Virus record (IMG/VR): IMGVR_UViG_2695420539_000011
Coordinates: 1 to 5,245 of that record
Direction: 5' to 3' (one strand)
Origin: a virus
Taxonomy: Duplodnaviria; Heunggongvirae; Uroviricota; Caudoviricetes
Length of the DNA stretch: 5,245 bases
Under the pieces are notes generated by a model, which saw only the letters and a program-made list of their open reading frames with translations, was not told the DNA's origin and made no database searches. The position numbers and the translations under genes were made by a program. Positions 1 through 3,120 of the stretch are shown here, piece by piece (within the stretch, counting starts at the first letter, position 1; each line of letters starts with the position of its first letter).

Positions 1-1176
1 ATGTTTGCTGCATTTCGTAAGGCGATGCACAAAGCCGGATTGCGCTGGTATGGCGTGCGGGTGGCTGAGCCGCATCATGACGGTACAGTTCACTGGCACC
101 TGTTGTGTTTTATGCGCAAAAAAGATCGCCGCACCATTACTGCTTTGTTGCGTAAGTTTGCCATTCGTGAAGACCGCGAGGAGCTGGGTAATAACACGGG
201 ACCACGCTTTAAGTCTGAGCTGATAAACCCGCGCAAAGGTACGCCAACAAGCTACATCGCGAAATACATCAGTAAGAACATTGACGGGCGTGGTCTGGCT
301 GGCGAGATCAGCAAGGAAACGGGTAAATCCCTGCGTGATAACGCTGAATACGTTAATGCCTGGGCGTCTCTGCATCGTGTTCAGCAATTCCGCTTCTTTG
401 GCATTCCGGGGCGTCAGGCTTACCGTGAACTGCGATTGCTGGCTGGTCAGGCGGCAAGGCAGCAGGGGGACAAAAAAGCAGGTGCGCCGGTACTGGATAA
501 CCCGCGCCTTGATGCAATCCTGGCTGCTGCTGATGCTGGTTGTTTTGCCACCTACATCATGAAGCAGGGCGGCGTACTGGTTCCCCGCAAATATCACCTC
601 ATCAGAACTGCTTATGAAATCAACGAAGAGCCGACCGCATATGGCGATCACGGTATTCGTATTTATGGCATCTGGTCACCCATTGCAGAGGGCAAGATCT
701 GCACTCATGCCGTGAAGTGGAAAATGGTTCGTAAGGCCGTTGACGTTCAGGAGGCGGCAGCCGACCAGGGCGCTTGCGCCCCTTGGACTCGTGGCAATAA
801 CTGTCCCCTTGCTGAAAATTTGTACCAACAAGGGAAAGACAAATCAGCTGATGGAGATACCAGAACGGATATCACCCGCATGGATGACAAGGAGTTGCAC
901 GATTACCTGCACAGTATGAGCAAAAAAGAGCGCCGGGAACTGGCAGCAAGGTTACGCCTGGTGAAACCGAAACGGCGTAAAGACTACAAACAGCGAATTA
1001 CAGACCATCAGCGACTGCAGCTCGTGTATGAACTGAAGTCCAGGGGATTTGATGGCAGCGAGAAAGAGGTCGATTTACTCCTTCGCGGCGGCAGTATTCC
1101 GTCGGGAGCAGGCCTGCGTATCTTCTATCGGAACCAGCGTTTGCAGGAAGATGATAAGTGGCGAAACCTGTATTAA
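1..1176 (+). CDS. A: Replication initiation endonuclease (P2 gpA-like rolling-circle Rep, HUH superfamily); 5' end lies outside the window, C-terminal ~391 codons present
   Basis: Open frame runs from window edge to TAA at 1174-1176. Contains HUH-type motif V-H-W-H-L-L (His codons at 91-93 and 97-99) and paired tyrosines in SYIAKYISK (Tyr codons 253-255 and 265-267), very like the phiX174 gpA / P2 gpA active-site motif Y-x-x-K-Y. Position immediately upstream of the DinI-like gene as in P2-family phages. Confidence 0.85.
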
Positions 1177-1268
1177 TTACGCGGGTTAACAATTCGTGCT
1201 CTTAATAATACCAGGCATATCAGGCTGATGAGCGTAAAAAAACGTTTTACATCAGTAAGATTATTATA

Positions 1269-1288
1269 TACTGTAAATATAAACAGTG
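1269..1288. promoter_or_regulatory. LexA (SOS) box, TACTGTAAATATAAACAGTG, within an AT-rich promoter region upstream of the small-ORF/DinI-like module
   Basis: Perfect CTGT-N8-ACAG core (CTGT 1271-1274, 8-nt AT-rich spacer, ACAG 1283-1286) with flanking TA...TG, matching the E. coli LexA operator consensus TACTG(TA)5CAGTA. Lies about 40 nt upstream of the RBS/ATG at 1319-1331. Exact -35/-10 hexamers could not be assigned unambiguously. Confidence 0.65.
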
Positions 1289-1328
1289 GTTATGTATACA
1301 GTATTGCTTTGGTGTCATAGGAGGAAAG

Positions 1329-1517
1329 ATGCAGGACTATTTTTTGGAGTCTTTGAAGCTCCAGCGCATTGATTTTTTTCTTAAGCTTGTAGCGGCTAGT
1401 GAGTGTAGTGATGAAGAGAAGGGGCTGGCTCTGCAGTGGGTTTCTGAACTGACAGATGAACTCATGGCAAAAATCAGAACCCACGAATACAACCGCTCAA
1501 TGGATGTCATCAGCTGA
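1329..1517 (+). CDS. Small hypothetical protein (62 aa); possibly the N-terminal portion of a 186 Tum-like antirepressor split from the downstream DinI-like ORF
   Basis: ATG at 1329 preceded by a strong Shine-Dalgarno AGGAGG (1319-1324). Stop TGA 1515-1517 overlaps the RBS of the next gene. Sits directly downstream of the LexA box. Function not recognisable from sequence. Confidence 0.45.
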   Translation: MQDYFLESLKLQRIDFFLKLVAASECSDEEKGLALQWVSELTDELMAKIRTHEYNRSMDVIS

Positions 1518-1761: not shown

Positions 1762-1849
1762 GAAACGTTGCTGGCGTCTGAACCTGCTTCTGGCGTCAGC
1801 AAGGTTGAACCGCGAGCCTTGAGAGGCGTTAACCATAAGTAAAAAGACA

Positions 1850-1972: not shown

Positions 1973-2845
1973 ATGAAACGTGGCATTGTAGCTAATCCTA
2001 ATGAAATGAGTTTTCATAGAAATAATAGTACGGTCTATCTTGGGGCAGGTTTAACTGAGCAGGATATTAATTATTTCTGCTTTTACTGGGATGATGTGGT
2101 TATTCTAGATAGTGAAAATATTCACTCGATTGTGCCTAAAGAAAAAGAATTATTAGATAATGGGGTATTACGTAGACCTATTATGAAACATGATGGTATG
2201 CTGAATATCCAAGACTTTCCATTTTTATATACGGAATTTCAGTTGCAGACATTGGATGAATTCAGGAAGAACGAGCCTGCTACTTATTGGCACTTTCATC
2301 AAACAGGGGAAAATTTAATATATGATAAAGAACAGAAAACGGCCCTTCAGTTGAGATTGGAGTTGTTTAATGTTCTGAGAATTCCTGATAAAGATGCTCA
2401 TATAGAAGATATATTACGTTTTAAAGATGATTGTCAGGATGATCTTAATGCGTTACATGAGTACTTAGAAAAACTGTATACTGAAGTCCTTTATTCTAGA
2501 GACCCTAATCTAACGAGGGCTAAAAATTTTTCTTTATTACAAGAGGCTGTAGTTAATCTTGATAAAGCTATCGAAGGGAAATGGAGAAATCCTATCAGAA
2601 TGGGAGTCAAAGCCAATCCAGAAGTAGATGGTGGGCAGGTTATGGAATTTTTAAAACCGTTGTACCATGCTGCTATTGCTGGTTATTCAGGCGGTATTAT
2701 TCCCGGTATGGTTACAGCCTTGGCAACCGCAATTCCAAGTTTTATAAAATTCCAACCAGAATGGGTGGGCTTTAGAGATAAGGGGCCTAAAGAATTAGCT
2801 TATCTTACCAAAGCAACGCATAAGGGGTTGATTAAGAGAGCTTAA
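1973..2845 (+). CDS. Hypothetical protein, 290 aa, AT-rich cargo gene at the tin/old-equivalent position; candidate phage-defence or exclusion protein with a C-terminal hydrophobic (putative transmembrane) segment
   Basis: Long uninterrupted ORF. ATG at 1973 with RBS AAGGAG 5 nt upstream; the track's GTG at 1949 is in frame but lacks an RBS. Stop TAA 2843-2845. Marked drop in GC relative to the flanking phage genes. Hydrophobic, Gly/Ala-rich stretch around residues 227-259 (AAIAGYSGGIIPGMVTALATAIPSFI). I recognise no similarity to any protein family. Confidence 0.7.
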   Translation: MKRGIVANPNEMSFHRNNSTVYLGAGLTEQDINYFCFYWDDVVILDSENIHSIVPKEKELLDNGVLRRPIMKHDGMLNIQDFPFLYTEFQLQTLDEFRKNEPATYWHFHQTGENLIYDKEQKTALQLRLELFNVLRIPDKDAHIEDILRFKDDCQDDLNALHEYLEKLYTEVLYSRDPNLTRAKNFSLLQEAVVNLDKAIEGKWRNPIRMGVKANPEVDGGQVMEFLKPLYHAAIAGYSGGIIPGMVTALATAIPSFIKFQPEWVGFRDKGPKELAYLTKATHKGLIKRA

Positions 2846-2976: not shown

Positions 2977-3017
2977 ATGTCATGCAGGCGCATGAAAACC
3001 ACTACATAAAGCGGGCA

Positions 3018-3036
3018 GGCGTGGCGGGGATACGAG
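3018..3036. other. Putative cos (cohesive end) site of the P2/186 type: GGCGTGGCGGGGATACGAG
   Basis: From memory, the first 13 nt (GGCGTGGCGGGGA) match the 19-nt cohesive end of phage 186 (GGCGTGGCGGGGAAAGCAT) and nearly match P2 (GGCGAGGCGGGGAAAGCAC). Located about 160 bp beyond the end of Q, in the expected orientation and position. The last 6 nt diverge, so exact termini are uncertain. Confidence 0.4.
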
Positions 3037-3120
3037 CGCGCGCAACGGGGTAAAATGGCCAAAATCCGGCGCAGCCTCTGGCCCGCTGGCAGCCTCATTT
3101 TGCGTAGGGGGAAAATGTCA

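Follow-up and report, generated by a model that had tools for sequence, protein, structure and literature searches.

The window, by which we mean the whole 5,245-nucleotide stretch of DNA analyzed here, is the right end of a P2-like genome. Its plus strand carries the 3′ part of replication gene A, two small genes encoding proteins of 62 and 77 aa, and a cargo gene, while its minus strand carries the portal (Q) and large terminase (P) genes. The features, by position in the window, are as follows.

1 to 1176, plus strand: 3′ part of replication gene A (gpA endonuclease; Pfam Phage_GPA, E = 5.8e-44), the upstream neighbor of the predicted SOS operon
1246 to 1251, plus strand: putative −35 hexamer, TTTACA, of the predicted SOS promoter (p95 equivalent); 100% pairwise identity in 8 relatives
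1269 to 1274, plus strand: putative −10 hexamer, TACTGT, within LexA box 1, placed by analogy with the annotated −10 of 186 p95
1269 to 1288, no strand assigned: LexA box 1, TACTGTAAATATAAACAGTG; 23.0 bits; identical in DuoHS and Fels-2
1284 to 1303, no strand assigned: LexA box 2, CAGTGGTTATGTATACAGTA; 15.0 bits; a second box at the 15-bp offset in 8/8 Fels-2-type relatives
1319 to 1324, plus strand: Shine-Dalgarno sequence, AGGAGG, of the 62-aa gene; GGAGG invariant in 10/10 aligned sequences, including 186 and PSP3
1329 to 1517, plus strand: tum (TumA-type), the 62-aa putative antirepressor gene; 61/62 residues identical to DuoHS ECHS_RS04495
1528 to 1761, plus strand: dinI-like gene (TumB-type), 77 aa; Pfam DinI, E = 6.6e-23
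1768 to 1802, plus strand: strong hairpin just past the dinI-like stop codon, without a U-tract (RNA fold)
1973 to 2845, plus strand: DUF6236 cargo gene, low GC (Pfam DUF6236, E = 6.4e-21)

Over positions 1150 to 1800, the window is 97.7% identical to Salmonella phage Fels-2 and 92 to 98% identical to many Peduoviridae of Escherichia coli and Klebsiella, and some part of the 5,245 bases is matched in 1,298 of 5,426 complete E. coli genomes. Gene A is the upstream neighbor in 186, PSP3, Fels-2, and the E. coli HS prophage DuoHS as well. Among E. coli chromosomes, the nearest copy matches the full window at 99.3% identity and belongs to a complete prophage adjoining rcdA, which encodes an integrase, CI, CII, and Fil and thus has 186-type immunity; its CI is homologous to 186 CI (30% identity, E = 5e-32). 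Since the immunity region lies outside the window, we infer the CI target of the module from such relatives.

The LexA operator and its putative promoter

Positions 1269 to 1288 read exactly TACTGTAAATATAAACAGTG and contain, as the original prediction stated, a complete CTGT-N8-ACAG LexA core, which occurs a single time in the window (1271 to 1286). Taken alone, this core is only moderately unlikely by chance, with 0.08 matches expected per window and at least one match in 16 of 200 dinucleotide shuffles. Given that frequency and the AT-richness of the region, the LexA-like sequence might be read as a chance AT-rich palindrome with no regulatory role, but the remainder of the evidence leaves this reading with almost no credence. 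For scoring, we turned 27 E. coli operators of the Lewis 1994 and Fernandez de Henestrosa 2000 compilations into a 20-position weight matrix, against which box 1 scored 23.0 bits, exceeding 21 of the 27 training operators; no window shuffle reached the score of the full 20-mer (0/300). Box 1 also matches what is expected of a gammaproteobacterial LexA site, namely, a CTGT-N8-ACAG palindrome whose spacer is AT-rich and a close match to the 20-bp consensus TACTGTATATATATACAGTA. A second box, CAGTGGTTATGTATACAGTA at 1284 to 1303, scored 15.0 bits, a value that was reached in 1 of 300 window shuffles and falls within the range of real operators. Meanwhile, the best unrelated LexA-like site in a weight-matrix scan of the full window had no more than 8.5 bits. 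The two 16-mer cores (1271 to 1286 and 1286 to 1301) have one base in common, G1286, and are offset by 15 bp, the canonical colicin offset. Furthermore, both boxes are selectively conserved in diverged relatives, and there is genetic evidence from the near-identical phages Fels-2 and DuoHS, as described below. Judged by its sequence, the LexA operator at 1269 to 1288 is genuine, and by the same reasoning it is part of a double, overlapping, colicin-type SOS box rather than a single one. The perfect core that had been predicted was thus recovered, while the description of the operator as one box missed the second site at 1284 to 1303.

The site lies just upstream of the 62-aa open reading frame (ORF) and the DinI-like gene, again as predicted, with box 1 ending 41 nt 5′ of the ATG at 1329. 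A consensus promoter scan at a strict threshold called no sigma-70 promoter near the boxes, so the promoter assignment rests on conservation and on analogy with p95. The arrangement TTTACA-17 nt-TACTGT in the window mirrors that annotated for 186 p95, TTCACA-18 nt-TACTGT, in which the −10 hexamer also falls within the LexA site. Conservation was assessed as mean pairwise identity in an intergenic alignment of eight Fels-2-type phages, some of which are merely 77 to 80% identical over the module. Identity was 1.00 for the TTTACA hexamer (1246 to 1251), 0.87 for LexA box 1, 0.84 to 0.85 for LexA box 2, and 0.89 for the Shine-Dalgarno sequence with the start codon, compared to 0.58 for the 17-nt spacer between TTTACA and TACTGT, 0.60 for upstream intergenic DNA, and 0.21 for the stretch from box 2 to the Shine-Dalgarno sequence. 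The boxes, the −35 TTTACA, and the ribosome-binding site are therefore kept in relatives of 77 to 80% identity, whereas the flanking intergenic DNA is not. Equivalents of box 2 in the eight Fels-2-type relatives scored 9.5 to 18.9 bits, the weakest being that of SEN8 (9.5 bits). The double-box pattern was found in at least 120 IMG/VR contigs. Among the 120 listed, the 62-aa gene is directly downstream in 118, with a dinI-like gene too in 106, and gene A is upstream in at least 107.

Two further observations concern LexA sites in relatives of this phage. In a prophage of E. coli 22-245 that is 99.3% identical to the window (L011:10269-10303), a C-to-T change falls in the CAG common to both boxes (TACTGTAAATATAAATAGTGG...) and drops box 1 from 23.0 to 16.3 bits; going by the matrix score, this may be an operator-weakening mutation. 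Outside the region covered by the window, a second strong LexA-like box (TACTGTATGTATAACCAGTG, 23.4 bits) is found ~30 nt 5′ of the integrase start codon in both DuoHS (L139:18335-18354) and the 22-245 prophage (L011:1539-1558), a placement suggesting that SOS control may extend to int in these two prophages.

The 62-aa and DinI-like genes

In this 186-type P2-like phage, the 62-aa gene comes first after the LexA box, with gene A on one side and the right-end cargo on the other. Its product is 98% identical to Fels-2 STM2728 and is represented in 482 database clusters, and it matched no Pfam family. The dinI-like gene starts 10 nt after its stop codon and encodes a protein identical in all 77 residues to DuoHS ECHS_RS04500, with a full-length match to the DinI profile (PF06183, positions 1 to 63 of 63, 81.3 bits against a cutoff of 24.2). 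This protein shows 78% identity with PSP3 TumB and 42% with the C-terminal portion of 186 Tum, and the dinI-like gene is best described as a separate C-terminal half of tum. In comparisons to relatives with synonymous divergence of 0.42 to 0.67, dN/dS was about 0.06 to 0.10 for the gene pair (0.08 for the 62-aa gene and 0.06 to 0.10 for the dinI-like gene), indicating that both genes are real and under strong purifying selection.

Whether the 62-aa protein corresponds to the other half of Tum is harder to judge from sequence. BLASTP produced no alignment of the 62-aa protein with either 186 Tum or PSP3 TumA. The same search also failed to align PSP3 TumA with 186 Tum, an accepted pair, and the negative result therefore carries little weight for proteins this short. 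A profile comparison of the 62-aa family with the N-terminal half of 186 Tum using hhalign gave a weak match (score 20.7, E = 1.2e-3, probability just 20%), which was ungapped and collinear (positions 3 to 43 on positions 3 to 43) and whose score was reached in 0 of 300 column shuffles (mean 10.4, standard deviation 2.5). Homology of the 62-aa protein to the Tum N-terminal half is, from these data, plausible but not proven.

Experiments on a near-identical prophage bear on function more directly. In DuoHS, an in-frame tum deletion and a lexA(Ind−) mutation each abolished both lysis and virion production after mitomycin C (PMC12055606), and the supplement of that paper names tum as ECHS_RS04495 (PMC12055606). 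In the genome record (NC_009800), ECHS_RS04495 is a 189-nt gene annotated as a “hypothetical protein,” immediately upstream of the DinI-like ECHS_RS04500. By analogy with DuoHS, then, the antirepressor is the 62-aa ORF, a split-off, TumA-like N-terminal half of tum, and not the DinI-like gene. The original prediction pointed to the antirepressor gene tum at the equivalent position in 186, which agrees with our reading, but its implicit emphasis on the DinI-like gene does not.

One might still propose that the DinI-like protein couples the SOS response to induction, with the 62-aa ORF serving as an accessory or leader peptide. The DinI-like segment is, after all, part of the Tum polypeptide in 186, and a gap of 10 nt separates the two genes within a single operon, so that deleting tum may have polar or coupling effects; even the in-frame deletion in DuoHS might conceivably disturb translation of the dinI-like gene, which begins 10 nt further on. 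We consider this proposal improbable. It was the 62-aa ORF that the in-frame deletion in DuoHS removed (PMC12055606), the 186 annotation describes truncated, DinI-only Tum products as merely “modulating” SOS induction, purifying selection on the 62-aa gene is strong, and 8 of the 120 listed viral contigs carry the 62-aa gene without a detectable dinI-like gene within 700 nt. With the 62-aa protein as the likely antirepressor, the 62-aa “hypothetical protein” that adjoins the DinI-like gene should carry the label Tum antirepressor in annotation.

Phage Cartapus (L010:1680-2112, compared with positions 1329 to 1761) has a 62-aa gene nearly identical to that of the window (pS of 0.027 and no amino acid change) followed by a strongly diverged dinI-like gene (pS of 0.60). 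The mosaic boundary between them indicates that recombination separates tum from the dinI-like gene. In one pair of prophages, near-identity of the 62-aa Tum protein (about 97 to 100%) goes along with CI repressors of only 47% identity (L011:4131-4784 versus L002:19-615), and in this CI pair the N-terminal helix-turn-helix region is far better conserved than the C-terminal part. This pattern hints that Tum might target the conserved N-terminal DNA-binding region of CI, or that one Tum might serve several immunity types.

Variable cargo, the right end, and the proposed switch

Similarity to Fels-2 ends at about position 1759, and the hairpin at 1768 to 1802 lies at a place equivalent to that of the partial terminator t95a in 186. 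It is possible that this hairpin is likewise a partial terminator, or an RNA-stabilizing element, at the boundary with variable cargo. The DUF6236 gene that follows has a GC content of about 34%, compared to about 52% in its flanks, and occupies a variable slot between the dinI-like gene and cos/Q. In relatives, the same slot holds a Hypoth_Ymh-domain protein, PIN-domain or AIPR proteins, or Fels-2 STM2726; in P2, it holds old/tin. At 2945 to 2975, 3′ of the DUF6236 gene, folding predicts a strong GC-rich hairpin (GAGGCCCGCTAGGAATGGCGGGCCTT) followed by TGCTTAT, which probably terminates the rightward transcript shortly before cos. Both hairpins were found by folding alone, as a consensus terminator scan called neither. 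In alignment, the right end annotated in the 186 record corresponds to position 3017 of the window (...CATAAAGCGGGCA), and the 19-nt cohesive end of 186, GGCGTGGCGGGGAAAGCAT, aligns with GGCGTGGCGGGGATACGAG at 3018 to 3036. Positions 3018 to 3036 (context, 2990 to 3040) are the cos site of the phage, which places the SOS operon, together with its cargo, at the very right-hand end of the DNA that is packaged. The module therefore occupies, as originally claimed, a position equivalent to that of p95-tum in 186, flanked by replication gene A on one side and, on the other, by cargo at the right end beside cos.

By analogy with 186, the DUF6236 gene may be reached by read-through from the SOS promoter. 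In 186, a further cargo gene, orf97, lies past the partial terminator and is cotranscribed from p95, and in Fels-2, STM2726-2728 have been grouped as a single predicted, responsive operon (PMC2225428). Together with the location of the DUF6236 gene on the same strand and the missing U-tract in the hairpin after the dinI-like gene, these parallels could be taken to mean that the promoter mainly expresses the cargo under SOS control, as a damage-induced moron or defense gene, and that prophage induction is secondary. Yet modules that otherwise hardly differ carry different cargo, with DUF6236 in the window but not in Fels-2, DuoHS, 813R9, or the PIN/AIPR variants, which have other genes in its place, while the unit of operator, tum, and dinI-like gene stays constant. 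Furthermore, PADLOC returned no match for any of the three proteins (62-aa, DinI-like, and DUF6236), leaving the DUF6236 gene with no defense-family assignment. We regard a promoter that exists mainly for its cargo as highly improbable; expression of the cargo is compatible with an induction operon and does not replace that explanation.

Altogether, positions 1246 to 1761 very probably make up the operon through which the SOS response induces a P2-like prophage of the Fels-2/186 type, a split-tum form of the LexA-Tum-CI switch. In a lysogen, LexA, probably as two dimers, would occupy the overlapping operators at 1269 to 1288 and 1284 to 1303, covering the −10 region and the site where transcription probably starts, in a promoter with TTTACA (1246 to 1251) as its putative −35 hexamer. 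Upon DNA damage, activation of RecA would lead to self-cleavage of LexA, firing of the promoter, and synthesis of the two small proteins. The 62-aa Tum would then bind the 186-type CI immunity repressor and block its DNA binding, opening the way to lytic growth, while the 77-aa DinI-like protein would most likely tune RecA-filament activity and the host SOS response. A double box with colicin geometry would be expected to give tight repression and a high or late threshold of induction. The dependence of induction on LexA and tum in this scheme is carried over from published work on modules that are 98 to 100% identical at the protein level. Given this role, calling the locus an accessory module, as was first proposed, is a misnomer: it would be the induction switch of the prophage.

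Comparison with known SOS-controlled modules

The LexA-Tum-CI induction switch is already known, and prophages nearly identical to this one have already been tested experimentally. DuoHS has the same module, in which Tum (61/62 residues) and the DinI-like protein (77/77) match those of the window, and its intergenic region agrees at 98% of positions, box 1 being the same and box 2 differing at two spacer bases. In Fels-2, the counterparts of the gene pair are STM2728 and STM2726.1. Both DuoHS and Fels-2 have the neighbors seen in the window (gene A upstream and cargo followed by Q/P downstream), but the DUF6236 cargo differs from theirs. Fels-2 STM2727 is listed as a LexA-regulon gene and was induced 5.5- to 14.8-fold by the mutagen MX (PMC2225428), and a lexA null is lethal in Salmonella LT2 through Fels-2 induction (PMC8072944).

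In 186, a LexA-repressed promoter lies 3′ of gene A with its −10 hexamer, TACTGT, within the LexA box, and the module combines an antirepressor acting on a 186-type CI with a DinI-like moiety that follows it; a similar arrangement is predicted for the window. The differences are that 186 has one near-consensus LexA box (27.4 bits) where the window has two overlapping boxes and that 186 Tum is a single 146-aa fusion, whereas the window has split genes for 62 and 77 aa whose N-terminal counterpart can barely be aligned with that of 186. In the literature consulted, CI binding has been shown for 186 Tum alone (cited in PMC3121763). PSP3 is split in the same manner as the window, with a 60-aa upstream gene (tumA), annotated as “UV induction of prophage,” ahead of a 77-aa DinI-like gene (tumB), but it has a single LexA box (28.6 bits) in place of the double one, and its TumA is just 22% identical to the 62-aa protein in a MAFFT alignment. 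Lemire 2011 described tum as split in two by a stop codon in Fels-2 and PSP3 (PMC3121763) and the upstream gene of PSP3 as encoding the antirepressor (PMC3121763).

P2 has orf91 (DUF3850), tin, and old at the equivalent position, with no tum or dinI there and LexA-like sites of at most 7.5 bits. The original contention that this prophage is of an SOS-inducible type, unlike P2, is consistent both with this absence and with the experiments on the near-identical DuoHS and Fels-2. The module explains why DNA-damaging antibiotics induce this class of P2-like prophages, which is common in E. coli, Salmonella, and Klebsiella, but do not induce P2 itself, and it is relevant to gene transfer by prophages and to lysis of the host under genotoxic stress. 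The Gifsy and Fels-1 prophages (GfoA/GftA with dinI homologues) follow the same logic, in which LexA represses a small antirepressor that is cotranscribed with a dinI homologue. They differ in that dinI comes first, and their antirepressors, repressors, and phage type (lambdoid) are unrelated to those of the window.

The operator itself also resembles those of bacteriocin genes. A 49-nt operator query returned matches in small Col plasmids at 86 to 90% identity over 41 to 47 nt, located 40 to 80 nt 5′ of genes for colicin N (cna), pesticin (pst), a Klebsiella tRNase bacteriocin, and a pore-forming colicin. When aligned, the operators are nearly superimposable (ACTGTAAATATAAACAGTGGTTATGTATACAGTAT in the window and ACTGTATATAAAACCAGTGGTTATGTGTACAGTAT for colicin N). 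The colicin and pesticin operators share with the window 16-mer cores that have one base in common and a strong box 1 followed by a weaker box 2 that begins with CAGTGG. Box 2 scored 12.1 to 16.2 bits in four colicin/pesticin operators, and across the Fels-2-type and bacteriocin double operators, box 1 ranges from 21 to 24 bits and box 2 from 9.5 to 19 bits. In the bacteriocin operators, the boxes sit just downstream of a TTGACA-17-TAATTT promoter, whereas box 1 of the window overlaps the putative −10 hexamer, and the genes under control are unrelated. In the literature searched, which did not include Bunny et al. 2002, we found no description of this near-identity to bacteriocin double SOS boxes.

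Double boxes of this kind in colicin operators are reported to be bound by two LexA dimers, with very tight repression as the outcome (PMC2994835). As a minor addition to the known switch, the double, colicin-like operator predicts tighter repression here than in 186. We see roughly even chances that the Fels-2-type lineage has adopted, by shared descent or selected convergence, the bacteriocin-style threshold of firing only in heavily damaged cells. If so, the kinetics of induction and the fraction of spontaneously induced cells should differ predictably between phages of this type and 186.
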